From NCBI GenBank assembly GCA_008632985.1, contig QPGO01000055.1, forward strand, positions 287,100-351,099: DNA of 64,000 nucleotides, in the 5' to 3' direction. Position 1 is the stretch's first letter. Each line of letters begins with the position of its first letter. Of this stretch, positions 8,723 to 40,970 are shown in pieces. A model generated the notes under the pieces. It saw only the letters and a list, made by a program, of their open reading frames with translations, was not told where the DNA came from and did not search any database. Both the position numbers and the translations under genes were made by a program. Source of the stretch: Psammoneis japonica. Lineage: Eukaryota.

Positions 8723-8729
8723 CAAGAAA

Positions 8730-11042: not shown

Positions 11043-11453
11043 CTTGCTGTCTCTGTTTGTGTTTTTCTTTATCACAACCGCTTTTCGTGTTTTGTTCCGT
11101 GTTCGTGAATTCGTGACGGGCCTGTCGAGTGGCCGCATGCCAGAGAAATACAGTAAGCCCCACCTTTGTCTTGTCTCCATACATAATAATCAATAATCCC
11201 ATTCAAAGATGACTTTGCGATGACTTCAATGCGAAGGGCTTATATATTTGAAATCCCAATCAAATAGGACAGTACGTCTAAATGTCTCTATAAAAAGGCC
11301 AGCTTCATAAAATGAGAAGGGCTTGTTTTTTTCTTGTGTTAGTGACTGTGACTTGTGAAGTGCTCTTTTAAAAAGCCTTGTCATTTCGACAATGCTGTGT
11401 CCCACAACTTAGCACCGGTACTGTGCTACTTTATCAGTCATTCTCTAGAGAGG

Positions 11454-11635
11454 TGAATGAGATAGGCACATGTGCTTTATGACCAAGTGTGCCCTCTCTG
11501 ATGTGTGCATGTCAACTGGCGCATTGGATGTTCAGGAAGCCGTCAGAAATCAGCTCCGATCAGTGATTGTGCTGATCGGGTCTCTTCTCGGTTCTCCCAC
11601 AACTTTTGTCAAGTCATCTCAAGCTAGATCTTGCA
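11454..11635 (+). repeat. Gypsy 5' LTR
   Basis: Ungapped match to 16941-17122 with 25 differences, all transitions. Confidence 0.95.
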
Positions 11636-11948
11636 CTGCAATTGCAGTCGTTGTTGCGGCTTGTTTGCTGCATTGTCAATTTTGTGACAACGCGAAGAGT
11701 GTTGTCGAGAAGAGAGAAAATTTGTTTGCGAGCTTGTGCAGAAAAATTCATTCGAAGTCGATCAGAACCGCAGCACAATTGTGCTCGTGAAATTGGCGAT
11801 TCGGATCAGCATTTGTTTGAACTCAAATCTCGCATTGCTGCTCTTGAATTCGTCATTGTTTGGTTGTTGATTGTTCTCGTTGTGTGGATCAATTGGGAAC
11901 GTTTTGTTTCATTCATCTTGTGGATTGTTGATTGTTTGATCGCTGAAA

Positions 11949-14900
11949 TTGTTCATCGCCATGCATCAAGAAGCCTTGGAGAAAGCGTGCATTGAACATA
12001 AAACCAAACTCGTGGATTCTGAGCTGCAGGAAGTGAAGCTCACTCAAACCTTCGATGATGGTGCCAAACTTTCAAAAATGTGTCCTGTTTTCACAGGAGA
12101 GCATGGGATTGAATCATCATTGCACGTGGAGGATGGGTTCCGGAAGGTGGCAAGACAGCCAGATTGTGATGCCGGAACAGAGTCATTTGATGCTTTCGAG
12201 GATTGTCTCCAAGGAACTGCGGAGGCAAAATGGCAGAATGTCACCACGGGCATTCCACAGAGTCAACGGACGGCAGCTCGATTTGATCAGGCTATCTCAT
12301 CCTGCTGTCTGCACTGCGTGAAACCGACAGCTCACGACACAATGAAGATGTGCTTGCCCACTTGCAATGAGCCTTGCTCAGCGGAATCTGAAACTCACAT
12401 TGATCGCATGGAGATGTTGTTTCGTCACACTGACCGTTTGCCTGGTGCCGTTCCTGCACTCACAGAGCAGGAGCAGAAAAACATCATCTTTTGTGCCTTC
12501 CCTTTGACCTGGCAGCAGCCCCACATTTGTGCAGGCAAGAACCTTGTCACGGATTCTATGGTTGATGTCCAAGCCCACATGAGTGATGAGAAAGTGTTTG
12601 CCGACGGTCAAGACAACAAGAAACGCAAGTCCAGCAATGGCAACGGAGGAAACTCCAGTGACAAAAAGGGCAACCATGACAAGAAGGATGGCAAGGGCCA
12701 ACCGAAGGCAGGTGATCCATGTCCGGTCCCGTGGCACCATGGAAGGCATGCATTGGGCCAATGTTGTGACAATCCGAACAACCCCAACTTTCGTGGGCCT
12801 CAAAACCGTGGCGGTCGAGGAGGAGGCTGTGGCGGTGGAGGTCGAGGCGGAGGCCGTTTCCAAGGAGGCTGTGGTCAAGGCTGTGGAGGCAGTGGATGCT
12901 TTGGTGGTCATGGTGACCAGAACCAAGGAGGTTGTGGCACCTGTTGCAACAACAACAACAACAATGGAAATCAAAACAACAATGGCAACCAAGGTGGTGG
13001 TCAACATCATTGCAATGAAAACAACAACCGTGGAGGCCAAGGACAGGCCGACGGACATGCTGCTCAAGCAGACAATGTGAACAATGACAACCAGGCTCGA
13101 GAAGCTCCTTGTGGTGATGTGCGCCATTTTGACATGATCGGACGAGGCCCTCCAAGATGCGGAGGTGTGGTGAGGTTTCAGCCGGACGGGCAGTTTCCTC
13201 GGCAGTTCTGAGAAGAAGGAGCTGAATGCTCTGGAGCTGAATGCTCCCAATTGCCTGTGAGAGAAGCATTTGTTGAAGAAAATGATTGTGCTCCACCTGA
13301 ATGAAATGACGAATGTTTTGCTTTTGATTGTTTTGAAAATCCTGACGAATTGTCACCCATTGAATTTGAAAATGCTGCAGAAAATTGCATGAATGAAGAG
13401 GGGGATGTGTTTGATCAAGATGCATTTGAATGTGACACTCCTCTCCCCAAAATGAGTTCGCAAGTCTCACGTGCCGCATTGGTCCCATCTGCACCACTTG
13501 TTGCAAAATCGATCCAATGGCATGAGTCGAATCGTGTGATGCGTGTTTTGTTTGATTCGGGTGGTTCTCACACTGTGATTTCATCCCAAGTTTCACCTCG
13601 AGGAGCTGCACCATCTGTTGATGAACATGGAGTCAGAGCTTTCCAAACCGTGGCTGGTCCTTTCCAATCGGGTCGTTGGGTGGCCTTGAGCGATGTCGTG
13701 TTGCCGGAATTTGACAAAACTGGGAGGATTGACGGCTGTGTGGCTCACGCACTCGATGCTCTGTGTGCGCACGACATCATTTTGGGTCGAGACTTCTTGG
13801 ACAAGATTGGTCTCAACCTGAACTACGATGCAAGGACACTGCGATGGCCAGACCGTGTGATCCCAATGAAGGAACCTCGTCATTGGTCCAAGTCTTACAA
13901 CTGGCATGTGGCTCTAGATCGAATGGATGAATTTGATGAAGATCATGAAGACGAGTCGGACCATGGATGCGATGATGGACATGACAACTGCATGCTCGAC
14001 GCCAAGTGTGAAGCAACGGATCCAGCGGAAGTGGTTCGGAATTTAGATCATCTCACGGAAGAGCAAAAGAAGAAGCCACTGGCGGCATTGGAGAAATGTT
14101 CAACCTTGTTTGATGGAACTTTGGGGCACTGTCCTCATGAAAAGGCACACCTCGAAGTGGATGAAAATGCTGTTCCACATCACTCAAAACCGTTTCCTGT
14201 TGCTCGAGTCAATGAAGAAGCGTTCAAAAAGGAATTGAAGCATTTGGTGAATCTCAGCGCACTTCGACCATGTGGACCTACGGAATGGGCAGCCGGCACC
14301 TTCATTGCTCCGAAAAAGGACGGCCGAGTGTGATGGGCATCCGATTTTCGGGAGCTCAACAAAGTCATCAAGCGGAAGGTGCATCCTTTGCCAGTTGTTC
14401 AAGATGTGCTACAACGGAGAGCGGGCCACAAGTTCTTCACGAAATTGGATCTCACTGTGTTCTACTGCAATTTGGAATTGGACGATGAAAGCAAGGAGCT
14501 CGCTACGATTGCAACTCCGTGCGGAAAGTTCCAGTGTTGTCACATGGCTGTGGGATTGAAGCCAGCTCCAGACATTGCTCAGTCCATTGTTGAAAAGATC
14601 CTGCATGGTTTGGATGTTGAAACTTACATTGATGACATTGGCGCATTTGACGCTGACTTTGATTGCCATCTCTCTCGCCTTGACAAGGTGCCACATCGTC
14701 TCGAGGAGAATGGTTTGAAAGTCAACCCATTGAAGTGCGAGTGGTGTGTCCAAGAAACTGATTTCCTGGGGCGTTGGCTTGCTCCAACTGGAATCAAACC
14801 GTGGAAAAAGAGGGTCAAGGCGATCCTGCGAATGCAACCTCCACGGGATGCCACTCAGCTCCGGTCGTTTCTCAGTGCAGCAACCCATTGTCGCAACATG

Positions 14901-16832
14901 TGGCCTCGCCGTTCTCACCCACTTGCACCTCTGACTGAATTGACAGGCAAGAGTCAGTTCCAATGGACAGAATCATGTCAGAAAGCATTCAAGGAGATGA
15001 AGGCAGTGATTGCGGCGGAAGCTTTGATGGCCTGTCCTAACCACAACCTGCCATTCCATGTCCACACCGATGCATCAGACTGCCAGATGGGCACCGCCAT
15101 CATTCAAGATGGCAAACCTGTGGCGCATTGGTCTAAGAAGCTCTCGGCAGCTCAACGCAACCACTCAACAATGGAAAAAGAACTCCTAGCCGTCGTCATG
15201 TGCTTCAAGGAATTTCGCTCCATGTTGCTCAGTGCTGATGTTGCTGTTCACACTGATCACAAAAATCTCACCTTTTGCACTTTGAATGCGCAGCGCGTCC
15301 TTCGTTGGCGACTGTTCCTTGAAGATTTCGCGCCTGCCTTTAAGCATGTCGAAGGCAAGGACAACATGCTCGCCGATTGTTTTTCTTGACTCCCACGCAT
15401 GGATCCGCCTTCAGAGGGGAAGAGCCTTGGGCCAAGTGGCAGCAAACGCAAAGGAAAAATTGTTCATTTTGAAAAGTTGGATTCCAAGGAACTGAGCAAA
15501 GCTGAGGAAGAGGAAGATTTGGAGTTGGGCGCTTGCAGGTTCAAGTGTTGCCGTGCTCCGGTTGATCCTTCTGATGAGTCTCACGCCGCCTTTTCCTCTC
15601 TGCTTGATGAGCCTGAATTGTTTGAATGCTTTTTGAATTACCCAACGCTGGATGAAATGCCGAATCCTGCTGAGATGCTGAGGACACAACAGTTCCAGTT
15701 CGAAGATCTCCAACTGAATCAGCAAAGACAACAAAATCCGCAGCAGTTCGTGGTCAAGATTGTGAATCATCGTCCCTTGATTTGTTGTCGTTTGCATCTG
15801 AATGATCCGCCTGGAGCCTGGAAAATTTGCACTCCTGCTGCATTGTTGCTGGGTGCCATTGCATGGCACCATCGTGCATTGGGCCATTGTGGAGTCGTGC
15901 GATTGCATGAAAGTGTTCGGACTCACATGCATCATCCTGCATTGCGTCGACGTTGTAATGAATTTGTTTGCGATGTGTGTCAATGATTTAAACAACTGGG
16001 TCCTGGACATGGAGAATTACCTCAATGTCAAGCACCTTTGGCTCCGTGGACAGAAGCAGTGGTTGATCTCATTGGACCGTGGAAAACACCGATTCAAGAC
16101 CAAGAGATTGAATTCAGCGCTCTCACTTGTGTTGACACTGTCACTGGATTGACTGAACTCGTGCGCATTGATGACAAAACTTCTCAGCATGTGACTGACA
16201 AGTTTCGCAATCTTTGGTTGGCTCGCCACCCCAGACCAAATGGATGCATCCATGACAATGGCAGAGAACTCATTGGTTGGGAATTCCAGATGCCACCAAA
16301 TCAAGCAGGTGTTGCTGATGCGCCGACGACATCTCGAAATCCTGCAGCCAACTCCATTTGTGAACGAATGCACCAGACGGCAGCTGACATCTCATGCACT
16401 GTGGTTGTCGCCAACCCACCTTTAAATGTTCAACAGGCCAAGCAGATTGTGGACGATGCCCTTGCTGCAGCCTCTCATGCTTTGCGATGCTCCCACTCAA
16501 GGTCTGTGGGTGTTTCAAGTGGAGCTCTGGTGTTTCAACGTGATGTGATTTTGGACTTGCCAGTTGTCTCCAACCTTGCTGCGACACAAGCCAACCGACA
16601 AGTGTTGATCGACGAGAATCTGCGACGACAGAATGCGCAGCACCATTCCTGCGATTGTCCAGTTGGTCAAGATGCATTGACCAAGTCGGTGGATCCTTCA
16701 AAGTTGGAAGAACGAGCCTGTGGTCCATTTCGAATTGCACAAGTCCACGCCAACGGGACTGTCTCGGCACTGCGAGCACCACACGTCATTGAGCAAATTG
16801 ACATTCGCCGCGTGGTGCCGCATCAGAGTTGA
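11949..16832 (+). pseudogene. Gypsy gag-pol in a single reading frame, interrupted only by TGA stops
   Basis: ORFs starting 11949, 13350, 14379, 15399 and 16038 share one frame; LFDSGGS (protease), YIDD (RT), TDAS/EKELL/TDHKNL (RNase H), HHCC and DLIGPW..HDNG..ICERMH (integrase). Confidence 0.93.
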
Positions 16833-16940
16833 GGGTTTCTTCCCAACGTCTGGGTTCCCTTCTCCGTGCGCATTGGGGTTTGAATTTTGGTCGAGTGGCT
16901 CCAATGGTGCACGTGTTCCTTGCACCATGGAGGGGAAGAG

Positions 16941-17122
16941 TGAATGAGACAGGCACACGCACTTTATGACCAAGTGTGCCCTCTCTGATGTGCGCACATT
17001 GGCCAACGTGTCAGATGTTCAGGAAGCCATTAGAAGTCAGTTCCAATCAGCGATTGCGCTGATCGGGTCTCTTCTCGGTTCTCCCACAACTTTTGTCAAG
17101 TCATCTCAAGCCAGATCTTGCA
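16941..17122 (+). repeat. Gypsy 3' LTR
   Basis: Follows PPT, ends CA, followed by TSD AGAGG. Confidence 0.95.
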
Positions 17123-17672
17123 AGAGGTGCTTTGGCACAAACAGCCCCTGTTTCATGGCATCCTGCCCGCGCTGTTCGTTCTTGCCAAGGAACAACAGAA
17201 CAAGTGGGCTTCCCAATGTCTTCGGCAATGTCTCTTGATGCTCCAAGTCAGCAGCAAGTGCGAGCAGAAAAGAAGATGATGCATGGATCCGTTTTAGAGG
17301 ACTGATGTCAGGCTCGAATCATTGCTGCCGAAAGACATTTCAGCATGCAGACAGGTGCAGTCACCAAAAAATCAGTGACCGCTCCACGCTGGCACTGCTC
17401 TGGGAAGTGGCAGTTGTTCTCTTCGCCTTGTGGGCCGAAAGTGACTCACAAAATCTCAGTTTGCTGCAGTGCTCTGAGTTCTGAGACACGCACAATGGGG
17501 TGCTTGTCTGCCGTTTTGCTGGGTGCGCTTCTCAGTGCTGCACTCAGTTCTGTCAATTCATCCTCTCTTCGAGGAATCATCCCATCCACCGCCAATGACA
17601 GGGTCCTTGCGGCGACAGATGAAGCTCACTTCCGATGCACTCTCGACTTGGTTGAAGAAGTGGAGATGGGAG

Positions 17673-18119
17673 CGCAGCATGCATGCAGACAAAAGGTCAT
17701 TTTTGTCATGCCCTTTGTGACATTTAAAGGCTGTGACACGTCGCCGTGACACATTGGCTCTCATTGGCAGCTGTGTGTTGCACTCCTCCCCATGTGTCAC
17801 GCGTCCATGCGGCTCTTTGCTAACGTGTGCTGACACTGCACGGTTTTGGCGGAACAGTGTGGGCATGCACGAAGGAACGTGCAGAACTGCACAGAGTTTC
17901 ACACGTTCGACAGTGATCAACGTTGCTGCAGACAACTCCCACTCAGGGTTTCGAACCCCTGGCCTCCTGCCCAATGGTTGCGATGAACCACTCCGCCATG
18001 AATTCACAGTGCAGCATGCATGCAGACAAAAGGTCATTTTTGTCACGCCCTTTGTGACATTTAAAGGCTGCAACACGTCGCCGTGACACATTGACTCTTG
18101 TTGGCAGCTGCATGTTGCA
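17673..18119 (-). mobile_element. TRIM (miniature non-coding LTR retroelement), copy 1
   Basis: 110-bp terminal repeats 17673-17782 and 18010-18119, PPT GGGGAGGAG on minus, 4-bp TSD GGAG; empty site visible in the paralogue at ~29766. Confidence 0.92.
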
Positions 18120-18977
18120 GGAGGCCCGCATGACAATGACAACGGGCCATCAGAGGAAACAGTGACATGCGTCAAAACTTCAACGGTTGCACACATGGAC
18201 AAAATTGCCGAGATGTTTGTCAACGAGATGGAAGGTTGCACACCAACTGGTGGGGAACATTGGGCAGATTCAGCGATGTATGCCCAAGGTGACGAGGAAA
18301 TCAAAACGACCATCAAGACAGACATTTTCGCCAAGCCAAAGGTCTTCATTGGAGGGGTTTTAAGTGAAAGAAGAAACATCGACCCAAATCAGCACCCCAC
18401 TTTAGGAGGCCATCGTGCTCGGAAGCTGTGGATGACTGCAGCCGGCAATGAAACCAAACAAGAGGCAGGTCACGCTGAAGCGCACACAAGTGCAAAAAAA
18501 GACTTCTGCGTCAGCGCAAGAGAATGAGGGTTCCTTCATTTCTTGGGACATTCATCGCCAAATGCAGAACAAGAAGAAAAACAGGAAGAAGAAGAAAAGA
18601 AACAAGAGGCAAATGTTTTCTCTGAACAACAAGGTCCACTGTGAGCCATGTCTTTCAGACAACTTGGATGGGGGCAGGCTTCGGAGGCTTCATGCTCTGG
18701 CTGCCATCAGCTCTTTTGAGCCCAACTTTGAAGTCTGGATGAATGATCGCATTCGCGAAGAGATCATCAAGGACTGTGCGGAGATTGCAGTCACAAGCAC
18801 AACGTTCTCGAGGATTGAGAAAGGAAACGCGACACACACAAGCGGTCCATCTCCACCTCTTCCAGGTTGGGAACAGCTGCTGGCAGAGGATGGAGACGAT
18901 GGGCGTCCACCAGATCCAGGGGCAGACGGTGGCACTCATCCAGACGGTGGGCCTCCATCAGATCCAGGCGCGGATGG

Positions 18978-19172
18978 TGACAGAATGCTGAAGGTCGACA
19001 GCGACAGAGGTGTGAAAGACTCCCTGAAGCACCAGGACTGTGATGATGCGAGCACCAGCAGATGAGAAAAGTGAGAAGCAGATCTCAGAGAGATCTGCTC
19101 GTCTGTCCAAATGGTCTGGCCATCATCCGCATCCAGTCTGTCCATCCTGCGACAGGTGCAGACAGGCTGACA
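18978..19172 (-). repeat. Copia 3' LTR
   Basis: Ungapped match to 27761-27955; 15 differences, 14 of them transitions. Confidence 0.95.
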
Positions 19173-20636
19173 CCCTCCCCTGATCTGTGGTGTCTCAACT
19201 TAGAGAACAGTGCAGACCAAACCAAAGAACAGGGACAATGTGAGGAAAAAACAGAGAGACCAGACACAGGACACGACAAGTGTCCATGCCCAATGCGCAA
19301 TCAATCAAGGGGGCAATTCGCAGCGGGGAGGCCACCGTGGAAAAAAATGTCAACAGCAGTGTCCCATCATGTGTTGAGCATGGCGAGCGTGCAGTGCCCA
19401 GCCAAGAGCCTTGGCAAGGTCATCGCTGGGGTTGACAATGCCAGGGATGTGTCTTGCGACAATCTTGCCCGCTTCCTTCCATTCTTGGATCGCAAACAAC
19501 TGGATCTCAATGTGACGGGAGTGCTCGGTCAGAATCGAGTGATTGATGATCTTGATCGCCGATTTGTTGTCAATGTGTGATGGGGTTGGCTTCGTCTGAG
19601 GGAAGCCCAGGTCTTGTAGAACGTGACGAAGGTGTGGGACATGCTTGGCAGCAGTTCCAGCAGCACAAAATTCAGCTTCCGTAGAGCTTGCAGCGGTCAC
19701 CGATTGGGTCTTGCACCAAAAAGACACAGCAGCACCAGCTGACATGCAAGCACAGCCAGTCGTAGAACGATGGTTGCAGAGGTCATTGCCACAAGCAGCA
19801 TCCAAGAAAGCAACGAGTTGATGATCACATGCAGGATGAGGGAACGATGGTGAGGTCGGGTCCGGAGTGAGACGTTCGAAGGGGCAGGCAGGTGGTTTTG
19901 AGTCTCGGGCAGGCTTCTTGCAGTTCAGCTCCCAATGCTTGGTGCGTCGAAGGCACTTGCACATTCCTTTGAGTGTGTCACAGTGGACCATGGCAGGACA
20001 GGTCGAGAACTTGGAGAGAGCAGTGACAGCACACCCAATGTCCAGTCGACAGACAACGTGCGCATGCAACAATTCGCCAAGAAGAGTTCGGCAGCCAAAA
20101 CCAGCAGCTTGTTGCAGCTCCGCATGCTCCGGGGTTCCTTCAGCTGGGCCAACAGCAGTGCACAGTTCGCGAACAGAGTCAACAGGGAGTGGCGCAGCCT
20201 TGCAGTCGTCGTCGAGTTCCTCGTCCGTCGGTGTCGACCAACCATGCGAGGCACAAACCCAATCTGCACAGCTGTGAACAGCAACACCAATGGAGTCATC
20301 ACATTGATGGACATCCACACCATTGAATTCTTCAATCATGCCAAGACACTTGAACGGCGGAGAGGTTTCCAATTCCAACTGGAGAGCTTTGCCAATCTTG
20401 TCGTAGATCTTGATCGCAATGGACTCTTCAGGACAAGCGAGAGAGAAATCATCAACCTGGCAGAGGAGCAAGATCTTGTGTCCCTCAAAAGTGGCAGAGC
20501 AGATGCATTTGTCATGAGCAGTGTTGCGAAAAAGCAGGTTCACATCAGACAAAAACCGTCGATGTGCGTCTCCCAGAGCACGCCGGCTTCTGGGTGTCCT
20601 TGGAGTGCATGTTGCATCGGAAGTGCCGTGCTCCTG

Positions 20637-21070
20637 TGCAACATGCAGCCACCAATGAGAGTCAATGTATCACGGCGACGTGTTGCAGCCTTTAAATGTC
20701 ACAAAGGGCGTGACAACAACCTTTTGTCTGCATGCATGCCACATTGTGAATTCACAGCGGAGTGGCACATCGCAACCACCAGGCAGGAGGCCAGGGGTTC
20801 GAAACCCGAGTGGGAGTTGTCTGCAGCAACGTTGATCACTGTCGAACGCGCAAAACTCTGTGCAGTTCTGTGTGTTCCTTCGTACGTGCCCACACTGTTC
20901 CGCCAAAACCGTGCAGTGTCAGCACACGTGAGCGCAGGTCGCGTGACACATGGGGAGGAGTGCAACACACAGCCACTGACAAGAGTTGATGTGTCACGGC
21001 GACGTGTTGCAGCCTTTAAATGTCACAAAGGGCGTGACAAAAACAACCTTTTGTCTGCATGCATGCCACA
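20637..21070 (+). mobile_element. TRIM copy 2, inserted in the Copia RT
   Basis: Terminal repeats 20637-20743 and 20961-21070, PPT GGGGAGGAG, 4-bp TSD CCTG; homologous to 17673-18119 in opposite orientation. Confidence 0.92.
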
Positions 21071-24000
21071 CCTGTCCAAGTCAATGCCAAATCGAGCCTT
21101 GTGCCAGGTCGCGCATGCCTCGTCTGTGGCAACACACACGGGATGTGATGGTCGTGGAGAGTGTGCACAGGCATCACAAACATCCCCGCCAAAGACAGGA
21201 CAGCTCAGGGTCGCAGCAAGGGCAAAAAACATGCGTTGGACAGGTTGCTCGACACAGGATGAGTGCGTCGAGCAGAGACAATGTAGTGTCGACGCAGCAC
21301 GGGGAGATCCATCGCAGCACTGTCGAGAGCGCCGTGTGCCATCATGCTTGAGGTCACATTGCCAATGCGGATGAAGCACGACAGCATCCTTGGGTCGTTC
21401 AATCGGTGCGCCAAACATCCCCAACTCATGGAACTGGTCAAGTTGTTTGAACTCACCTGCGTGCCATTTGGGCCACGTGTCCAACTTCTTGAGACGATGG
21501 CAGGTGAAAGTGCCCAAGGCTTGTTCCTCTGGAGTGACAGCGTGAGATGATGTGGCACAGATGTTGACTGTGCCATTGTCATGGTCGACAAAGAACGGCG
21601 GAGGGACATCGTCATCGTCCGTTTGGAGAAATCAATGTCGGGATGGCGGATGGCAGCAACAGCACGCACGTCGGCGTTGGTGATTTCCGGAACATGCTCA
21701 TCATCAGGATCAGGAGTCGGTGCACATGTGTTGTGTTCCATCAGAGCACGTTGTAGAGCTTGAGAGTCCAGGCGACGTTCCGGCACGAACTCAATTTCAA
21801 AATGAGTCTTGCCAGAATCATGGACTTGCTGAAAACGTTTGACAGCCTCCTCTGCCGTGAAGATGGGATGATCATTGATCGACAAGATGTGCACACCCTT
21901 GATCTTGTCACGGGTGGCCTTCAAAGAAGAGAAAAGACGTGCAGCAGGAGAACCACGCTCAATGTCAGAAACAAATGCTTGCCGACAGAGATCGTCCGTA
22001 GCCAAGGAAAGTCCAAATGTGGGATCAGCAAATGGTCCCTTCATCGCACGCTCAATGGTCTTGGCAAAAGGATTCCCATGAAAGTGAAATTCATCCATCA
22101 TGGTTTCTTCAGTCTCGGCAGGTAAAGCCTTGCCATCTTGAGTGCACCGCAAGTGAACCACATTCGGCGGAAGAGAGTCGTGGGGAAGATCATTCATGCC
22201 CTCATCACAGCGGATGTGCTTGGCAAGCTTGACACGCGATGTCTCAGCATCACACCCAAGAATGTTCTTGGCAGTGTCCAGAAGATGGCCTGAGAACATT
22301 CCCTTGCAAGAGACAGACCAAAATTTTGCTGGGCGGTGATTCGACGCATGCACCCACACTCGACAACCAAATGTGCGAAAGTTCTTGAAATCATCCTTCC
22401 GACCAGTGGCGAGAGCAATCGGAGCAGCAGGTTGTCCGCGGGATGGCATGGCATTGTTGATTTGAATGAAATGATGAAAAGCACAGGGCCAGAATTTTGT
22501 GGGCAAATCGGCACCGATTGGCATCGCCCGGATGGCGTCAGCAACAGACAAATGACTGCGCTCCACTGGGCCACTCTGATTTGAAGCATCTTTTCCCACA
22601 GGACGAATTGCATGATGAAAGTCATCCTCGAAGAGTTGCCGAACTTCTGGGTTTTGACACAATTCACCTCCTTGATCCATGAATGCATGTTCATCTGGAT
22701 GATTTGGCGAGTGCTCTTCCAGAAAGTGGCAAAGCCAATTCAAAGGGGTTGCCTTGGAGACACGAGTCGCACCATGGAGACGCTTCATTTTATGATCATA
22801 AACGGCAATCCAACAAGTCTCGCCATTCAATCCAACACAGTCCTTGGTGCGCTCCGAGCACTTGGAGCGTAGGCCAGAGAAGGAAAAATCAATCGTAAGG
22901 CCTTGGCAGGGTTGGGTGGCAGTGAGAGCAGTGTTCGGACCGGCAGGTTCCTTCGTCTGCTTTGCTCGCATGCATGTGGGACAAGTGTCGAGGGGAGAGG
23001 TTCCGTGAGCAAACTTGGGGACGCCGTCAACGTGTTTGTGGGCATTGCAAAGGCACTGATCACTCGGATGACCAAGTCGCTGATGCCACAAAAGACGTTC
23101 CATGTCGGCCTTGAGAGACTGGACAGGAATGTTCTTCTCAGCATGCTTCTCGAAAGGAATGTCTTGACAGACACGGGGGATCAACTTGCGTTCATCACGA
23201 AGAGCTTCATGTTGGTGGGCACGACAAGTCTCAATCACACACGCAGAGACCGCTTCACACTCATCGGCAAAAGAAGGATCACTGGTCTTGATGCGCTCGA
23301 CAGATGCATCCAGTTCGTCGTTAGATTCCGGGAGAATGAGAGGGTGAGCAAAACATTTTCCATTGATCAATTTCCCATGAACAACAACATCCTGACTCTT
23401 GCGTGATCGGTGTCATGCAACAAACTTGCAGGTGCCGAGATCATGGAACTTGAGAATGCAGTCGACATTGCAATCTGCGCGATGAGCACCATTTTGACGG
23501 AGCAGCAGTCGCTCATTGACCAACGTAGATTGGATCTGCGGGTGACAGCATGTACGAACCTCAACACATCCGGCAGAGTTCTCTGCAGGAATCCGCTGGC
23601 ATCCAAAACCAACTGGGACAGCTTGATGGCCAAGGGCGGGATTGACAGCAAGGGGACAGGGATGAGACGGAGTGAATTCTTGGTGTCAATGGAGGAGGTC
23701 ACGGTCGCCTGTGCACACAATGTCAGCACCTGTGTTGAGTTGAGCGCAACATTCATTCAGAGCAAAATTGACCCCATGGACAGAGCAAGCAGAGCGCAGT
23801 GGTTCTGGTTCAGGAGAGTGAGTCACTTGGCATGGATCAATCGGAGCAACTCAAACAGAATTGACTGCAGCAAAACCATCTTCAACGGCCATGTCATCGT
23901 AGGTGAGATCAATGTGTTCCTCAAAATCTGGTGTTTCTGAGGCTTCCCTCCCCTGCTCCAAAGGATCCGGAGCAGGAGCAGCATCGACGGTGTCTTCTTG

Positions 24001-24803
24001 AGGAGCAGGGTCATCGTCTGGCAATTTGCCAGTGTCGAATGATGCCTTCTTGGCAGTGGCAGGGGTGGTGTCCACATCAATCTGCGGAGAAAGAGGCATT
24101 TCAGCGGCAGATGACGAGACGGTTGGTCCCTCTTTCAAGGTCATCCCGCTGACATCAGTCGTGTCTCGGTGAGGAGAAAACGGGCAGCATCGGAGATCCG
24201 AAACAAGCTGCGACGGCCCGATTGAAAATCCGAGGGCAGAGCACCAGATTTGGTCAAATTTTCAGGGTTTTCATGATGAGGGGGGAGCAGGCCTTGGGGT
24301 CCTTGGAACTCAGAAGCACGCACAGCTGCCTCCCTCTTCAAGAATTGGCAAAAGCGGATGTGGAATCCCTTGATGTGCGGATTGTTCTTCAAGACTGGAC
24401 AGTCGTCAAACAAGTGTTCACCGGAGCAGACGAGACATGGTTTCTTGGAAGCTTCAGTCGGAGTGACACTCAGCTTGTAAACTGAAGCCGAGCAGACATG
24501 GTGAAGGAGTCGATCTTCATCCGTGGAGGGGAACTCGAGTCCATGTAACTCGTCGCAAAGAGTGTCGAAGGCATCCAAAGACAGAGATTCCGCACCAGTG
24601 TCTTCAACAGCAGAGTCATCGACTGGTTCAAGTGGAGGGATCTCGGGGACCTGGAGAGCATTGACATCAACAGTCATGCATCGTGTTTCCTCATTGGTGC
24701 GACTCCATTTACGGCAGGGATTGGATGGCGTCATACGGGTGTCAAGGGATGGACCATCTGGTTGGCGGAGGAAATCAGAGAGAGTCTCAACAATCTGTGC
24801 ATC

Positions 24804-25197
24804 GACGCGTTCCAGCCCCAGGTGGGAGCTCGCAGCACTGACGTGTGACAACAACAATTTTTGTCATCCGTCGCATGTTTCGTGCGCAGATTTCTACGTG
24901 TGACATTTAAAAAAAATTGTCCAGACTCGCTGTTTTGCGAAGCCCCAGATGTTTTGCATGACAAATTCACAGAAACAACAATGCGCCAGTTGCATTCTTC
25001 AATGTCTGAAGAATGTAACTGGCCAAGTAAAAATGATGTGCTTCAATCATGTGCGAGTTTGTGCATTCGCAAAATTGCCTCATTTTCTGTTGGCGATCAT
25101 TGACATTTAAATTGCCGCACAATTTTGCTGCGGAGCTCGCACGCAGAAGTCACAGGCCCAATGTCACACGGATTCCCACCTGCGTCTGGAACACGTC
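24804..25197. mobile_element. MITE with GAC...GTC TIRs and 4-bp TSD (family copy 1), in Copia gag
   Basis: GACGCGTTCCAG-n5-GGTGGGA ... TCCCACC-n5-CTGGAACACGTC; TSD CATC; removal restores KKHTDAQIVETL on minus. Confidence 0.9.
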
Positions 25198-25626
25198 CAT
25201 CAGTGTGCTTCTTCTGCACAGCTGGAGACTTCCGTTCATCTCTGGTGGCACAAGATAAGAACTTGGAGCACTCAGCTTCTTGACAAAGATGGCCATCTCT
25301 CGTGGATCACTCAACATAGAGTCCGCATCAAAGATGCAGGCACGCAGCTGCAGGGAATCATTGGAAATCATGTGGCAGTCCATCAATGATTGATTGCCTT
25401 GGGTGGGATGGGAACCAACCAGTCCTGCAGCATCATGGTCAAAAGCAGGGTGATTCTCGCAGATGATCTGCTTGAGAGCCTTGCATCCGTTGCCGCAGCA
25501 TGATGCAACAATCCGATGACACTTGCTGTTCTTGGGGAACATGTCCGACTTGGATGGGATCTTGTGGAGAGAGCTCTGGGCTTCCTTGCAGTGGACGTAC
25601 ATGTGCTGGAGCAAGTCGTCATCTTT

Positions 25627-26553
25627 GACGCGTTCCAGGTCTAGGTGGGACCTCGCACTGCTGAACTGTGACATCGATGGTTTTTTGAATCTCGTCGTAT
25701 GTCGCGCACGTAGAATTCTACGTGATTTTTTTATATTTTGTGTCATTTTACGGTACACTTATTGAGCGATCCGTCCAAAAACTTTTGACATTTTTTGTTA
25801 CAGCGCGATTCTATAATGTCTTAAGAATCGCGTAGGGCAGGTGCATTTGCAAAAACGTCGAGTGGTAAGAGGCATAATTGTACCACAAACTTGGCCGTTT
25901 ATTTGATGTTGAAGACACACACATACATTAACACGGGATCCACGGGTGCACCCGGGAATTGCGGGATGAAAGGGGAAAGGGGCAAATGGGAATGTTGGGA
26001 AAGTAAGGGGCCATTGTTGTGCCTCAAGGGTCCCTTTAGTGAGCCGAACACGCACATTTGCCATCTGACCATCATGGGTCCGTCTTATGGGGGGTGTCAA
26101 AATGTTGTGACGGGACGCGTCTTGAGGATTAATCGTTATATAATATATTTGGCTATGAAGGTTATATAAAGTTGAAAAACGTACGTGCGCGTTTTTTATG
26201 TGTGCCGTTTTCAGATTTATATAATATTAATGGTCAGATATATAATATATAAAATTATTTCTCGAGACCGCGTCTGCTCTCACAATTTAACGACCCCCGA
26301 AAGGACGGACCTACGAGGGTCAAATCAGCAATGAGCGTGTTTGGCTGACTAAAGGGTCCCTCAAGGTAAAATAATAGCATGTCACTTTTCCACCATTCAC
26401 ATTTGCCCCTTTCCCCTTTCATCCCGCATTTCGCAGATTCCCCTGGTGCATCCGCGGATCCCGTGTTAATTAAATTCTCGCACTGCGGAGCTCGCACGTA
26501 GAATTCTACGGGCCCAATGTCACACGGAGTCCCACCTGGGGCTGGAACACGTC
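25627..26553. mobile_element. Related GAC...GTC MITE (copy 2), TpA-intact, with a nested foldback element
   Basis: Same TIR pattern; TSD CTTT (25623-25626 / 26554-26557); removal restores EIGNGK-DDDLLQH. Confidence 0.9.
25932..26465. mobile_element. 534-bp foldback MITE flanked by TTAA (piggyBac-like, non-autonomous)
   Basis: TTAA|CACGGGATCC ... GGATCCCGTG|TTAA; imperfect inverted arms of ~250 bp around a ~25-nt loop near 26181-26205. Confidence 0.8.
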
Positions 26554-27760
26554 CTTTGCCGTTTCCAATCTCGAAACCTTTCTCACCACCGTGGTCCTTG
26601 GCAAAACACCACAATGGATGCATGTGGCACCCTGAGTCAAAGGCACGACGTTGGAAATTTTGGCACCATGCGCGTGTCCCAGGAGGAGAGTCATCATGAC
26701 ATGCAGGAGGTTCCCTGAACAACATTTTCTGGTCAGGAGTCGAGCTCATGATGAAAAGAGCACCATCGTCAAGGATGCACGATCGGATGCATCAATGTGG
26801 TGATGGAATCCATGGTCACAAGGGACGAGAGAACTCTGGAGAGCAACTTCGCCATCTTCTTTGCAGTCGCAGCGTTCACAAACATCTTTTGGCAGCATGT
26901 TTGGATTGAAGAGGTGTTTGGATGCAATGGAAGATGCAGCACTTCCGGGTGACTTGGCAGAAGCAGCAGAAGGCAGAGCGTGGCTCGACGCATGTGCACT
27001 GAGTGCGTTGACCAAGTCATTCACACTCGCCGCAGCAGATCCTGTGGTTTTCTGAGGAGGAGACGGAGGCTGCTTTTTCTGCTGGTGGGGTGCAAGAGAG
27101 AATTCGTTCCAACTGCGACAGCTCCACATCATGTCCGGATCAACACGCACATGTTGGGCAGATGTGGCAATGAACAGAGATTGTTTGCCATTCTGAAGAT
27201 TCGTCTTGATCATCTTTGATGAGATCGGAGTCGTCAGGCGGACTGGACGAGGCCTTTGAGGGTCAAGAAGTCTGAGCGGGGCTTGATCCACAATCGTCTT
27301 GATTGATTCTATGTCCGTGGGATCAGCTGTGTAAGGTGGAAACGCTTCGTGGATGAAACAATCACAAAGTGTGTCCGCAAAATCGTTCTTGGGTTGCGCA
27401 TGCTCTGGATCGTCAAAAAATCGATCGAGATCAGTTGTGGAGTCTGCACAAACCGCACTCAGGCACTGATGTAGATGTGGCATCGTTGTGTGTGCCTCAA
27501 ATTTGCAGCAGATCTCTGCAATTGACGTGGGAGCGGCTTTTGCAAGGTCGGGAGACGCCATGGTTTTAGTGGGTGGAGCCATTTTTGGTCATGCACGTGT
27601 GGAAATCTGGCATGTTTCTACGACCGTGAAAAATGCCGGGAAAGCGAGATAAAAAGTTGTCTGATCAGACGATGAGGCTCGCTTGATCGGCTCACAAAAC
27701 AAATGAATCGAAGTGGAAAGCTTGGCGCAGAGGTCTGTGGCACAGCGTGTGGCCACAACC

Positions 27761-27955
27761 TGACAGAATGCTGAAGGTCGACCGTGACAGAGGTGTGAAA
27801 GACTCCCTGAAGCACCAGGACTGTGACAACACGAGTGCCAGCAGATGAGAAAAGTGAGAAGCAGATCTCAGAGAGATCTGCTCATCTGTCCAAATGGTCC
27901 AGCCATCATCTGCACCCAGTCTGTCCATCCTGCGACAGGTGCAGATGGGCTGACA
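27761..27955 (-). repeat. Copia 5' LTR
   Basis: PBS-like GGTTGTGGCCACAC immediately internal; TSD GACGG external. Confidence 0.95.
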
Positions 27956-29059
27956 GACGGTGGCACTGCAGGTCAAGGACCTGGATCTCCCAATGTCCCT
28001 CAAGATGATGCCCCTCCCCCACTCCGCCTGCGACCGCATGGGGCCCATCACGGTTAAAAGGGCAGAGATGTTGCAAAGTCCTCCTGACCCTCTTTGTTTG
28101 AAATGGTTCATTGCATCCATGCAGGCCCTTTGCAGGTTTAACCGAGCGATGGGGGTGACTTTGTAGCTTCCATTTGCTGTCTGTGTGTGAGTGTCTGTCC
28201 ACTCGAATGTAGACGGAGGCACCGCTTGCATGCATGATGGCACACATTGTCGAGGTTTCCTTCTCTGCAATGTGCTCATGCAAGCAATGAAGCCATTCAG
28301 AAATTTCACATTTAGAGACCAAACATTGATTGGCCAATGTCTTGCTTCATCAAGCCAACGGGGCTTTTGACTCAGCTCAGATGCCGTGCAACTGCCAAGT
28401 CACTTCTCCTGGGTGCAAATGATGCACCATCGACCTTCTCCATGCATGGTTGCTGTCCAGTTTGGCCATGAGACGAAGTGTCAGCGGGCCGGTGGAAATC
28501 ACAAATCTTTGACTTGCGGGGCCGCAGGGGGTGCAGAGTGCAGAGTGCCGACAACACCATGAGCAGCATCCCATGGGAAAACTTGCCGCGCCACTTTCAA
28601 GATTTTGCATGTCACCATGACGCAGCTCTGTCCCTCGCCGCGGCACGGCAACTGGTTGTTGACAAAGAACATGCTCGCGCTTGGCCTGACGCACCTTGCA
28701 CTCTCCACCGGGAACAGCTCTGCACTCTCTTGAAAGAAGATTTAGAAACACCAGCACACTCTGCACAGCTTCATTTTCTGCTAGAATTGCAAGGCGCAAG
28801 GCGCAGATGAGCCATCATGGCGGCAAAAACTTCAAAATGTGAATGCCAGCGAGACGCGAGAAAAAATGTGTTTTCAGTTTTCAGTCGTGCGTGCGTGTGT
28901 CATGTGGAGTTTTTGCAAAAATGATGTGTTTTCATTTAAATCTGTGTAAAGTAAATGCGTGTGTAACGGACACAACGGAAACATTTGTTTTACAACTCTG
29001 ATTCAGTGCAAATTTTTCGAAAATTTGGCCAGAATTTTGCCAACTTCATCGTTGTCGGA

Positions 29060-31680
29060 TGTGGCTGTTTGTGTTTTTCTCACGCAGCCGCTTTTCGGTG
29101 TTTGGTTCGTGTTCGTGAATTCGTGACGGCTGCCTTCTATTGGGAATGGCCGAATGCAACGAAATGAGCCCCGTTTTGTCTTTCTCCGACAGTCCAATTC
29201 AAAGATGACTTTGTTTTTTGGAAGAATCAATTTTGAGAGTGCGTCAAAATGTCTCGAGTTATGACCAATGACTTCAAGGCGAAGGGCCTATTTTCAATTT
29301 TTTTGTGATTGTGACTTGTGAAGTGCTCTTTTGTGCCTTGTCATTTCGACGAATGATTCCTCTGTGCCGCTTTGCAATGCCTTCGTTGTGTCTCTTGATG
29401 GATGATGAAACGGTAAATCCGACAGATGACCGATGTCAGGTCCACATTGAAAAATGCCAAAAGGCATTGTCGGCTGCTCATGACTCATGTCATCAAAAAA
29501 TCAGTGACCTCCAGGCCGAAGCTCAGTTGTTCTCTCCTTCGCCTTGCGGGCCGCTCCTGAAAGTGACTCACAAAATCTCAGTTTGCTGCGCATTCTGAGA
29601 CCAGCCATGAGGTTCTTGCTGGGCACGCTTCTCAGCACTGCACTTGGTGGAGTCAATTTGTCCTCTCTTCGAGGAATCCCATCCACCGCCAATGACAGGG
29701 ACCTTGCGGCAACAGATGAAGTTCATTTCCGATGCACTCTCGACCCAATTGAAGAAGTCGAAACAGGAGGCCCGTGTGACAATGACAACGGACCGTCAGA
29801 GGAAACAGTGACATGCACCGAGACTTCGATGGTTGCACACATGGACAAAATTGCCGAGATGTTCATCAACGAGATGGAAGGCTACACACCAACGGGTGGG
29901 GAACATTGGGTAGATTCAGTGATGCACGCACAAGGCAAAGAGGAAATCAAAACGACTCTCAAGACAGACATTTTCGCCAAGCTAAAGGTCTTCATTGGAG
30001 GGGTCTCAAGCAAAAGAAGAAACATCGACCTAAATCAGCACCCCATTTTAGGAGGCCATCGCGCTCGGAAGCTGCAAACAACTGCAGCCGGCGATGAAAC
30101 CGAACAAGAGGCAGGTTACGACGAAGCGGATAAAAGTGTGAAAAAAATGACATCTGCGTTAGAACACGAGAATGAGGAGCCCTCTATTTCTGGGGACATT
30201 CATCGCCCAATGCAGAACAAGAAGAAAAACAGGAAGAAGAAGAAAAGGAAAAAGAGGCGAATGTTTTCTCTGAATGACAAGGTCCACTGTGAGCTGTGCC
30301 TTTCAGATAACATGGATGGAGGCAGGCTTCGGAGGCTTCGTGCTCTGGCAGCCATCAGCTCTTTTGAGCCCAACTTTGAAGTCTGGATGAATGATCGCAT
30401 TTGCGAAGAGATCGTCAAGGACTGTGCGGAGATTGCAATCACAAGCACAACGTTCTCGAGGATTGAGAACGGAAGCGTGACACACACAAGCGGTCCGTCT
30501 CCACCTCTTCCAGGATGGGAAGAGCCACTGGCAGAGGATGGAGACGATGGGCTTCCACGAGATCCAGGCGGGGACGGCGGCACTCATCCAGACGATGGGC
30601 CTCCATCAGATCTGGGCGTGGACGGTGGCACTCCAGCACTAGATGCAGGAGAAGAAGGAACTGCAGGTCAAGGACCTGGATCTCCCGATGTCCCTCAAGA
30701 TGATGCCCCTCCCACTCCGCCTGCGACCGCATCGGGCCCATCACGGTCGAAAGGGCAGAGACGTTGCAAGTCCTGCTGACCCTTTTCCTTTGAAATGGTT
30801 CATTGCATCCATGCAGGCCCTTTGTTAGTTTAACGGAGCGGTGAGGGTGTTTAGTGAAATTTTAGCTTCTATTTGCCATCTGTGTGTGAGTGTCTCTCCA
30901 TTCGAATGTAGACGGAGGCACCGCTTGCATGCATGACAGCACACATTGTCGAGGTTCCTTCTCTGCAATCTGCTCATGCAAGTCCTCCATGCATGGTTGT
31001 TATCCACATTAATGATGAGATCAAGTGTCAACAGGGTGGTGCATCATTTGGCATGATGGAGTGCACACAGAATGGCTTCAAGGAAATTCTAAATCTTCGA
31101 CCGGCGGCATCGTAAGGGGGTGTAGAATGCAGAATGCCGACAACACCACGAGCAGCATCCCACGGTAAAGCTTGTCGTGCCACTTTCGAGATTTTGCATG
31201 TCACCACGACGCAGCTCTGTCCCTCGCCGCAGCACGGCAACGCCAGCGATCGTTGCCTGTTGCAGAATCTTTTTCTTTCACACAAGATGTCGACGAAGAA
31301 CATGCTCGCGCTCGGCCTAACGCACTTCGCACTCTCCACCAGGCACAGCTCTACACTCTCTTGAAAGAAGATTTAGAAACACCAGCACACTCTGCACGGC
31401 TTCTTTTTCTGCTAGAATTGCAAAGCGCAAGACGCAATGAGCCATGGCATGAGAGTGTGTTTTCAGTTTTCAGTCGTGCGCATTAGCTTGTGCAGTTTTT
31501 ATCAAAATAATATGTTTTCATACAAATCCTTATAAAGTAAATTTGTTTATAACGGACACAACGGAAATATGTGTTATACAACTCTTCATAAATTCTAACA
31601 AGAATATCTGATTCAGTGCCAAATTTTTCGAAAATTTGGCCAGAATTTTGCCTTCAAAACCAAACTTCGTCGTCGTCCGT
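29060..31680 (+). repeat. Copy B of a ~2.6-2.9 kb tandem duplication (copy A = 11050-29055 minus TE insertions)
   Basis: 29060-29350 matches 11050-11395; both units end in AAATTTTTCGAAAATTTGGCCAGAATTTTGCC. Confidence 0.85.
29607..30779 (+). CDS. Putative secreted protein of unknown function, partly TpA-depleted (possibly decaying)
   Basis: MRFLLGTLLSTALGGVNLSSLRG signal-like start, Lys-rich tract, Gly/Asp/Pro-rich C-terminal repeats; no TE domain recognised. Confidence 0.5.
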   Translation: MRFLLGTLLSTALGGVNLSSLRGIPSTANDRDLAATDEVHFRCTLDPIEEVETGGPCDNDNGPSEETVTCTETSMVAHMDKIAEMFINEMEGYTPTGGEHWVDSVMHAQGKEEIKTTLKTDIFAKLKVFIGGVSSKRRNIDLNQHPILGGHRARKLQTTAAGDETEQEAGYDEADKSVKKMTSALEHENEEPSISGDIHRPMQNKKKNRKKKKRKKRRMFSLNDKVHCELCLSDNMDGGRLRRLRALAAISSFEPNFEVWMNDRICEEIVKDCAEIAITSTTFSRIENGSVTHTSGPSPPLPGWEEPLAEDGDDGLPRDPGGDGGTHPDDGPPSDLGVDGGTPALDAGEEGTAGQGPGSPDVPQDDAPPTPPATASGPSRSKGQRRCKSC

Positions 31681-38081: not shown

Positions 38082-39041
38082 AAATACGGGTGTTGCAGGC
38101 CAAAATAATGTGCTTACGGTAGACAATTAAGACGAAAGAGATTGTCTGCTGTTTGAAATGAACTATCGTCGCAAGTCGCAACGCGTCAGACGCGAGATGT
38201 GCTTCGCATCTTCTTGCATCGCAACGCGATCATCAGTCGTGTCTTTTACTTATGACTGGTCATTCTGGGGCTATATGTTCTTAGTCGTGATGACCAACAC
38301 TACCGGTGCATGCAGTAAATAGAAGTATGAATACACTGCACTGTGCTTCTTCATCATCGAGCAGGATCTCTGCGTGTCGTGTGGTCGAAGAGGGCAGCTG
38401 AGTCAACGCGCCAGTGGCCAACAAATCATTCAAAGTGCAGTTGATCTTCCTCCTTCACCACCTCAACACCATCTAAATCTCCATCAATCTTGCCAGCCAC
38501 TGGGGTGTGCTGCACCAGTGTCCACAAGAACAAAAAAGCGTGGCACAGATGAGGCAGAGCTGCGCTCCCAACCCTGCTGGCCCAACAAGGAGCTGTGCAG
38601 CCACCAGGTGTGTTTGAGGCTCAAAGCCAGCAGCCCAAGATGCAGCTTGTTGAGCTTGTCATGGGGAATCCTATTTTTTGGTGTTGCTGATGGCGCACAG
38701 AATGCTCTCCAACAGCGAGCTGAGGCAAGCACATGGTGTGGCACGTGCCATCTGAAGAGCCGCGCCCTTTTTCATTGCAACACTCCACTGCTCTTTTCCC
38801 AAGCTGTCTGTTGTTTTGCTCCCTCAGCCAGCACACCTTTGAATCCAGAATGTGCTCAAATGGGCAGGAGGCATCTTGAGCTTGTTTTTTGTGACAACAA
38901 TGGCACACAAAAAGAAACACGATGAGGGGCGCTTTTGAGGCAAGGGCCCTCTCTGGTGCGCATCTCTGGGCCCTGCTGTGGTTTCATGCCAAGGAAGCCC
39001 AGGGGCATCATGAGAAATTTCTGGGCATCCTTGTCTCTTCC

Positions 39042-40970
39042 TGTTGGAACATCAGGGTGTGATGCAGTTTTTGGAAAACACAGACAGACAATGTTGCAAT
39101 GAAAGCAGTGCTGACGACTGTTGGTGGTGTCATGAATTTGCACTTGCAACTCACCATGAAGATGGGTCCATTGCTCACTTTTTGGCTTCTGTGCTGCAAT
39201 GACATGGCAGTGGCACAGGAGTTGTGACTGCAACCCATGTGGTGAGTTTGGGGGCCATCAAGCAAGACCAGCAAAGAGATCAGTCAGCAAGTCGCACAAC
39301 ACAGAGGGAAAAAATGGAGGGCACGACACCACACTTGAGGAGGTGGTGCCAGTCAAAGGCAAAGAGATGGCCTGTGGAGGACCTTGCTGTGAGGAAGCTG
39401 CAAGGGTGTGTTGAAAGAGGGTGTGGCGAAATTGCATCAGACCAGGTTGGGTTGACAAACCAACGGGCACACAGAGACCGTGTGAAAAACAAGCAAGCAT
39501 GTTGGAAGAGTGTTTGGGCCAGAGATGCAGGTGCACTGGCATCTGGCATCTCTTGTGCAGGAGAACACAAACCACAGGAGCCGGGGCATCCATTGGGTGC
39601 AACTGCATTGGAAAAGGACAAGGCAATCTGGGGAAAACAAGAGTGCAGTTGCCATGCAAAGCACGGCATGATCTGCAAGACGCAGAAGGCAAAGGCATTT
39701 GGCGCAGTTGTGGGACAGTGCACAAAAGCCATCTGCGTCAAGGTCAAAGGAGTGATGGAGTTCACGAGGGTTGCAAAGGAGTGGGGTGTGGCAGCCCTTT
39801 TGGAAATTCTTAAGTCAATCTTGTTCAGGGCAAACATGGGAGAATCTGCTTGCATGTTCAGGCTGTCAAGGCTTGGAGGCAGTTGGCACTCATTCATCAA
39901 GATGAAGGAGGGGTGATTCAAGATTGTTGCAATTGGTCCACAACTCACAAGTGTTTTGTTGAGGTGGTGGAAAGGCCCTGCAACAGAGTTGTCCCAGAAG
40001 AAATTGCCAAGAAAGAAGATGCAGAGGAGCAAGTTGTCAGAAGTGCTGCTCATGGAAGGTGCAAAGGAGTGTTGTGACCTGCGCAGGAATGGGTTGTCAA
40101 GCACTTGAAATGTGACAATTTGTTGATTGCAGATGTTGTGAGACCATTCTGCGTGCAACACATGCAGGCATGATGATGGTTGGACATGTGGAGCTTGAAT
40201 CCCTGAGCAACTGTGGTCACATTTGGCACTGTGCAGACCCTTCACACACAGAGTGATGCAGCCCACCACACCAGGTCTCTTGCCAGGAGTTGCATTTTCC
40301 ACTGCACGCTTCTGTCCAATCAGTGTCTCTGCAGACAGCCTGCAGATTCAGGGAAGCAGCACCATTGGTGGCTGTGGCAGGGATGCCCGCTGCAGTTGGC
40401 ACATCTTGAAGCACCCTGCACCAGCAGTTTGCACTGCAGCAGGGGTCAGCAATTGCCCCAATTTGGCAGAGGAGATGCTGCAAGTGTTGGACTCATGTGG
40501 GGCTAACAAGAAACATGAGGGAGCAAGCTTTGTGCAAGAAGCAACACAAGAAGAAGCAGATCAAACACTGCAAATGTGACAAGGTTGGACATGTGAGGCA
40601 GGGCTGTCCTTTGCTCAATGGCAACAACAACTGCTCATCTGCAGAGTTGAATGAAGTGGTCAGTGTGGCATCAGGTGGCATGGCATCCAACTTCCAACTG
40701 TCATCCTCCTTTGACTGGCACACATGAGGCCAATCAATTGATGGCTTGTGTGAAGGAGTGCATTGGAGCATCGGGGTGTGACACAGTTTTTGGAGGACAG
40801 ACAGACAGCATCACAGCAAAAGTGACAGCCACTGACAACTGTTGGTGAGACCATGTGGGTTTGCATTCACAACTCACCATGATGATGGGGGTCTCATGCT
40901 CACTTTTTGGCTTCTGCACCAGGACAACATGGCAACAGTGCTGGAGTTGTGTTTGCAATCCACATGATGC
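39042..40970 (+). mobile_element. Degenerate, internally deleted LTR retroelement (probably Copia) with gag remnant
   Basis: ~200-bp diverged direct repeats starting 39042 (TGTTGGAACATCAGGGTG) and 40761 (CATTGGAGCATCGGGGTG) after GAAGGAGTG; VGQCTKA...ALLEILK gag-like segment; degenerate zinc knuckle HCKCDKVGHVRQGCP (~40565-40610). Confidence 0.55.

Follow-up and report, generated by a model that had tools for sequence, protein, structure and literature searches.

RIP, known from Neurospora and other ascomycetes, converts C:G to T:A mainly at CpA and so raises the TpA content, and it stops once its target has been degraded. Deaminases of the APOBEC and ADAR type edit retroelements before integration, and in nested-insertion stratigraphy younger transposons are found inside older ones. 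The closest described system to the locus considered here is the TpA-specific hypermutation of integrated giant-virus and virophage DNA in Bigelowiella natans (Mettrop et al., bioRxiv 10.64898/2026.01.13.699255). In that preprint, the changes are described as almost only A:T to G:C at TpA, yielding TpG or CpA depending on the strand, and as confined to silent foreign DNA, including a single-copy region, at a rate about 1000-fold above background and in some lines only; its authors propose an ADAT2-like DNA adenine deaminase. A literature search for published accounts of TpA erasure in diatoms or in transposons found only this preprint, which does not mention diatoms.

The window analyzed here, a 64-kb stretch of DNA from Psammoneis japonica, carries the same signature, a change from TpA to TpG or CpA, here located in blocks of transposons while the genes have a TA observed/expected ratio (o/e) of about 0.6. 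Over the whole window, the o/e is 0.37 for TA, 1.41 for CA and 1.36 for TG, and 500-base segments (n=128) are bimodal, with 56 at a TA o/e of 0.17 or lower, 62 at 0.40 or higher and 10 intermediate. The positions of the erased blocks are those of LTR elements and other repeats, and ordinary genes are spared: the regions of the Sec1, class-C receptor, TPR protein and subtilase genes have TA o/e values of 0.58 to 0.61. The block at 6.45 to 9.4 kb has 16 TA compared to 168 expected, while positions 11500 to 31000, with the island described below included, have 160 compared to 1191 (o/e 0.13), with CA and TG at 1.55 and 1.47. The features that the argument requires are the following.

11453-31000, no strand: TA-erased transposon block, with a Gypsy-type element (11453-17122), a repeat pair (17411-29041 and 29524-31652) and a Copia-type element
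18978-27955, minus strand: host LTR retrotransposon, putatively Copia-type, LTRs at 18978-19172 and 27761-27955, 5-bp duplication GATGG/GACGG
20637-21066, minus strand: TA-erased repeat nested in the Copia-type element, about 440 bases long, terminal direct repeats of 112 bases; sister copy at 17677-18119
24804-25197, plus strand: M1, a 394-base MITE of a sister subfamily, TA-erased, terminal inverted repeats (TIRs) of 27 nt at 85%, target duplication CATC at 24800-24803 and 25198-25201
25627-26553, plus strand: M2, a MITE with 389 bases of its own plus a nested foldback, TIRs of 25 nt at 84%, target duplication CTTT at 25623-25626 and 26554-26557
25932-26465, no strand: the nested foldback, 534 bases with an AT-rich center, TTAA duplicated at 25928-25931 and 26466-26469
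38500-47400, no strand: older erased block holding M3, TA 12/566.8 (o/e 0.02), CG 106/543.3, CA o/e 1.9, TG o/e 1.8
46711-47123, minus strand: M3, a full-length relative of M1 in reverse orientation within the oldest of the erased blocks, TA absent, CpG down by half

The Gypsy-type element has reverse transcriptase and RNase H domains at 14334-15389, and none of the eight long frames overlapping 38.3 to 47.8 kb had a Pfam match. The right edge of the 11453-31000 block is graded, fading between 30.6 and 31.6 kb, or over about 1.5 kb, with TA o/e values of 0.16, 0.33 and 0.55 in three consecutive repeat segments (29524-31652) towards the TPR gene at 31.8 kb. Near the left end of the window, a class-C GPCR-like gene (3186-5751, minus strand) has its ANF_receptor and 7tm_3 domains in two overlapping frames, which suggests an intron or a frameshift. 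Direct repeats at 6134-7049 and 7812-8725 are 98.7% identical and have 2 and 3 TA where about 52 would be expected. Between them there is one place with CA in one copy opposite TG in the other (a CA/TG pair), one TA/CA site and seven CpG-type changes. Since both are erased and yet differ by a single CA/TG pair, their sequence was copied after TA erasure, by duplication or by the movement of a short LTR-like element, with CpG decay continuing later. As these repeats indicate, a TA-free state can be inherited.

The element that hosts the island has LTRs of 195 bases each that are 92.3% identical, with TG..CA ends and a polypurine run before the 3' LTR. The Copia label has been partly tested and would follow from two minus-strand domains at 21205-23412, gag_pre-integrs (E 1e-7) and SH3_retrovirus (E 2e-7); rve and RVT_2 gave no match even at E 0.1 in the 16 minus-strand frames tried, presumably as a result of the erasure. 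The element sits within one copy of the older repeat pair; the other copy has the empty site, at about 30625-30660, with the sequence GACGG. The two copies of the target duplication, GATGG and GACGG, are one CpG-type change apart. The two LTRs are unlike at 15 of 195 columns, 10 of which are five CA/TG pairs in both orientations, the others being three CpG-type changes, one other transition and one transversion. Neither LTR has any TA, where about 10 would be expected in each. LTRs are identical at integration, and the CA/TG pairs therefore mean that each LTR later lost its ancestral TA sites independently of the other. The erasure took place in situ, on chromosomal DNA, following the integration of the element. 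Other repeat pairs of the block show a similar pattern. The copies of the 440-base repeat, one inside the Copia-type element and one, inverted, interrupting the older repeat, are 88% identical and have 14 CA/TG doubles among 43 differing columns, with TA counts of 4 and 3 compared to 23.5 and 25.2 expected, and the LTR pair of the Gypsy-type element has six CA/TG pairs and three sites with TA opposite CA in its 25 differing columns. The possibility that RNA or cDNA was edited prior to integration was considered and rejected because both orientations are found in each LTR and because the changes extend to the DNA transposons nested in the element and to the older repeat that flanks it.

Inside this erased element, M2 has 57 TA compared to 68.8 expected from base composition (o/e 0.83), and its foldback portion (25931-26470) has 34 compared to 39.7. 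Around it there are 5 TA compared to 56.8 expected in the 1 kb to the left of M1, 3 compared to 25.9 in the 429 bases between M1 and M2, and 3 compared to 60.3 in the 1 kb to the right of M2, which agrees with the description in the sequence-only reading of a TA-filled MITE and foldback in nearly TA-free Copia flanks; the motifs it quoted are also found in the sequence. At the host block rate of 0.09, M2 would be forecast to have 6.2 TA, and the probability of at least 57 is about 6e-35. The boundaries of the TA island are those of the insertion. The erased state continues up to the 4-bp target duplication of M2 on both sides, the leftmost TA of M2 lies 16 bases in from its left end, there is no TA at all across 26508-27309, and the 756 bases immediately to the right of M2 are TA-free. 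As the same reading had it, M1 retains a few TA (5 compared to 28.0, o/e 0.18, with the motif quoted as equivalent aligning) and M3 none (0 compared to 26.9); the corresponding CG counts are 22 compared to 21.4 in M1 and 11 compared to 24.0 in M3.

The three elements have the features expected of MITEs, with TIRs, target duplications in M1 and M2, lengths of 389 to 413 bases, no apparent coding capacity and many dispersed copies. The TIRs are 24 to 27 nt long at 84 to 96% identity, and the 4-bp duplications are perfect in M1 and M2, while M3 has a doubtful one in which three of four letters agree (TTTT versus TTGT). No Pfam family was found at E≤0.001 in the three frames of at least 200 amino acids that enter M1, M2 or M3 (24141-24863, 25150-25758 and 46748-47797), and at E≤0.1 these same frames gave only the sub-cutoff matches GAT, MATCAP and HMBD. 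No MITE copy other than these three was found in the 64-kb window. A scan of metagenomes with two degenerate terminal motifs gave no loci and then three loci that matched the 24-base pattern alone, which were attributed to chance.

The three had been described as MITE relatives, which holds in full for M1 and M3 and only at the termini for M2. M1 and M3 are full-length relatives, 77 to 78% identical (77% over 382 bases). M2 resembles them at its ends alone, for about 98 bases on the left (74% identical to M1) and 71 on the right (90%), and its interior is unrelated, with a local score of 27 compared to a shuffle maximum of 29 and to 217 for M1 versus M3. With only its termini in common with M1, M2 thus belongs to a different subfamily, probably moved by the same transposase. 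At six terminal sites, M1 and M3 differ as CA versus TG, and M2 has neither TA nor CG there and agrees with M1 at five of them. CA and TG seem to interconvert in the oldest block, perhaps through a short-lived CpG or TpA. In M3, A:T to G:C changes are found outside TpA as well.

The foldback has arms of 30 nt inverted at 90% and 175 nt at 75%, and TTAA flanks its inverted termini, with the empty sites in other copies sharing four letters at the joint. The TTAA duplication together with the inverted termini is what we take to be the mark of a TTAA-targeting DNA transposon, piggyBac-like or similar. Of 201 aligned columns the two arms disagree in 45, including 25 transversions, and this divergence was considered as a measure of age and rejected: this copy has only five differences from related contigs among the places listed, and the divergence of the arms is therefore a trait of the family.

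The sequence context of the surviving TA separates M2 from its surroundings. For this comparison, the erased parts at 6450-9400, 11500-31000 without M2, and 38500-47400 (131 TA) were set against the unedited parts of the window (1180 TA). The contexts ATAT, ATAC, ATAG, GTAC, GTAT and TTAT, which are sensitive, account for 12 of the 131 survivors in erased blocks and for 532 of the 1180 TA in unedited DNA; ATAT is entirely missing from the erased blocks (0 versus 78), in which few GTAC and GTAT/ATAC remain. TTAA, on the other hand, is enriched 3.4-fold among the survivors (21/131 versus 55/1180), and TTAG/CTAA is enriched too. M2 has 26 of its 57 TA in sensitive contexts, like unedited DNA, while M1 has none of five, and four of these five lie in TTAA or GTAA, where TA has been retained in the host as well. 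The survivor contexts fit independent targets at each site, one A per strand, with a 3'-neighbor preference of T≥C>G>A; at the 25 informative polarized sites, the edited A had a pyrimidine neighbor in 13 and a purine neighbor in 4.

Contigs from one public sample, possibly the source of the assembly and the only sample found to contain the stretch (a fraction of 0.52 of its words), were used to give these changes a direction. At a likeness of at least 80%, 5126 contigs matched, and 2276 of them reached at least 95%, as would be the case with families that have been active recently. Differences from a depth-weighted family majority are those at the 40 listed of 286 variable places. The eight listed differences between M1 and its family majority are five changes from TA to TG or CA, one CpG-type change and two transversion-like changes. 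At the five former sites (24884, 24887, 24956, 24968 and 24970), the majority has TA at 69 to 96% of the depth where M1 has TG or CA, and of six reliably aligned TA sites in the termini of M2, M1 retains one and M3 none. TA is thus ancestral, as had been claimed from the sequence. M2 and the foldback have six and five differences from their family majorities among the places listed. By the listed transversions, three for M2 and one or two for M1, M2 is not the younger element, but each of these letters is shared by 3 to 15% of the family depth, which makes them markers of subfamilies rather than a clock. A few changes of the TA type may be present in M2, the candidates being TG at 25678-79, where the majority has CA, and CA at 26481-82 and TG at 26484-85, where five contigs have TA. 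No distinctive CA:TG strand bias that would link M1 to its host was seen in the flanks or in M1.

Joints in the related contigs correspond to empty sites. In one contig (depth 183.6), a joint between 25622 and 26554 skips 931 bases, the sum of 927 and 4, which at 80% likeness is indistinguishable from another copy of the Copia-type element; a joint at M1 skips 398 to 399 bases (399 with one letter between), and in contigs from other M2-type copies precisely 538 bases are missing, with four shared letters. There are, accordingly, other Copia copies without M1 and M2 and other M2-type copies without the foldback. The summed contig depth is 53,000 to 415,000 over the parts of M2 that are its own (25627-25967 and 26472-26543), 1,100 to 6,100 over the Copia bins clear of both MITEs and 660 to 4,900 over the foldback. 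The MITE family of M2 appears to be extremely abundant, although summed depth is not copy number, and a consensus agreement of only 0.40 to 0.45 in the flanks points to copies at many different loci.

The sequence-only reading had placed the three MITEs in a series of increasing exposure, and this gradation was not supported. M1 has 5 TA where 2.5 would be expected at the rate of its host block (P=0.11), and M3 has none where 0.57 would be expected (P=0.57), so that neither departs from the block in which it lies. M1 is not intermediate but saturated, at the erased level of its host block. With the survivors of M1 in resistant contexts and the 500-base segments bimodal, the series consists of two states, unexposed and saturated, and it is extra CpG decay that marks the older block. 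CpG as a second clock would be at most suggestive, with 22 compared to 21.4 in M1 and ratios of 0.40 to 0.75 in the host.

It is likely that M2 and its foldback were inserted after the editing of the Copia host, which was also the earlier proposal that M2 postdates most of the mutation. Several lines of evidence argue for this order. The LTR pair records erasure in place, and the island is an insertion bounded by its target duplication, whereas the true edge of the block fades; the elements that were nested earlier, M1 and the 440-base repeat, are erased; the TA contexts of M2 match unedited sequence; neither MITE is present in other Copia copies, and the foldback is missing from other M2-type copies; and both M2 and the foldback are near their family majority among the places listed. 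In the 389 bases that are its own, M2 has kept 23 TA and has at most three candidate losses, the sites at 25678-79, 26481-82 and 26484-85, while the host has lost about 85%. As a rough estimate, the exposure of M2 would then be about 6% of that of its host, or none if the three changes came from the donor.

In the course of events that we infer, a Copia-type element would have integrated at 18978-27955 and then received M1 and the repeat of about 440 bases. A domain-wide conversion would have followed, of nearly every chromosomal TpA to CpA or TpG on both strands, favoring an A before a pyrimidine and sparing the neighboring genes, and it would have ceased in the 11453-31000 block before M2 arrived, from a very abundant MITE family with M1-like termini and with a 4-bp target duplication. 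The TTAA-targeting foldback would finally have landed in a TTAA site of M2. The conversion was probably burst-like or self-limiting, and its chemistry would be adenine deamination in TpA, by analogy with the proposal for B. natans. Near-total erasure while the LTRs gained two other changes per 195 bases fits a fast and episodic process, and a rate of the order of the 1000-fold given for B. natans would be in line with it. The bimodal 500-base segments and the intact later insertion M2 would agree with such a course indirectly.

Three other readings have to be weighed against this late arrival of M2. We find it doubtful that M2, with or without the foldback, was present during the editing and was spared by its sequence, by a hairpin-forming structure or by the local chromatin, some feature of M2 that would, on this rather unpromising account, keep the editor or a silencing mark away. 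M2 is not younger than M1 by the listed transversions (three versus one or two), its left part is CpG-rich (20 CpG compared to 13.0 expected), and the retention of TA in most of the family depth at the sites that M1 has lost suggests that repetition alone does not attract the editor, all of which would be compatible with such sparing. However, M1, which is of equal size and ends in the same termini, was erased, the unrelated nested foldback was spared too, close to half of the TA in M2 are in contexts that are almost never spared elsewhere, the erasure reaches the target duplication on either side, and no mechanism of protection is known. That M2-type MITEs and the foldback are exempt from the TpA editor even in a targeted domain is in our view quite unlikely. 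If they were, the editor would be guided by a cue narrower than location or repetition, or there would be a cis-acting protection from a genome-defense mutator, and the island would be a transposon counter-defense rather than a time marker.

It is decidedly improbable that the TA content was set in the donors, M1 and M3 deriving from erased copies and M2 from an intact one, in which case the copies would be uninformative on local exposure. MITE movement requires the termini alone, the mutated letter of M1 at its five TA-type sites is shared by 4 to 31% of the family depth, and at 25660, where M2 and the majority have TG, 8% of the depth has TA, so that some losses belong to whole lineages; a further point in its favor comes from the repeats at 6134 and 7812, copied after erasure. 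But each of M1 and M3 stands at the erasure level of its own host block, the 10 CA/TG paired differences between them speak for independent histories, and the survivors of M1 are in the same resistant contexts as those of the host. The intactness of M2 in a block edited in place would moreover stay unexplained unless M2 arrived later anyway. The abundance of the family, with a summed depth of 145,000 to 415,000 over M2's own parts compared to 1,100 to 6,100 over the Copia bins clear of both MITEs, would provide many intact copies from which an erased M2 could have been restored by ectopic gene conversion, but this is barely credible: the low-depth foldback inside M2 is intact too, other M2-type copies lack the foldback and the donor would need the same rare nested insertion, and the intact tract stops precisely at the target duplication.

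If M2 did arrive after the editing, TpA erasure acts after integration, on chromosomal DNA, and saturates rapidly, the Copia-type element having lost essentially all of its TA while its LTRs gained two other changes per 195 bases; the block was then left alone, and later insertions survive. Together with a MITE family that is abundant and mostly intact, this order would argue against a RIP-like trigger by repetition and for a property of the domain or of long elements. Loci of this kind would serve as a before-and-after assay of the editor, of where it was active, of the time at which it stopped and of its preference for flanking bases, and as polymorphic markers to test whether it is still active.

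The comparison with known systems shows how this locus is placed among them. Like RIP, the process left dense dinucleotide-specific transitions that kill transposons and spread to adjacent and nested sequence; unlike in RIP, it is TpA that is removed and CpA and TpG that are enriched, a polarity fixed by the family majority and the LTR pairs. RIP is triggered by duplication, and here a short MITE family keeps TA in 69 to 96% of its depth at the sites lost in M1, depth not being copy number. With a very abundant family of elements of about 390 bases mostly untouched, duplication by itself would probably not be the trigger. With APOBEC and ADAR editing, the locus shares a deaminase-type, context-specific transition hypermutation of retroelements, but both orientations in each LTR, the differences between the LTRs and the altered nested transposons and older repeat indicate a chromosomal target. 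B. natans is a chlorarachniophyte in which viral insertions were followed in mutation-accumulation lines, whereas the present locus is a fossil record in LTR retrotransposons and their nested elements, and it differs as well in being near saturation and in the CpG decay of its older block. As in nested-insertion stratigraphy, the Copia-type element lies in an older repeat, M1 and M2 lie in the Copia-type element and the foldback lies in M2. Beyond ordinary stratigraphy, these layers are stamped by a fast, all-or-none mutation, which allows the burst to be dated relative to the insertions.
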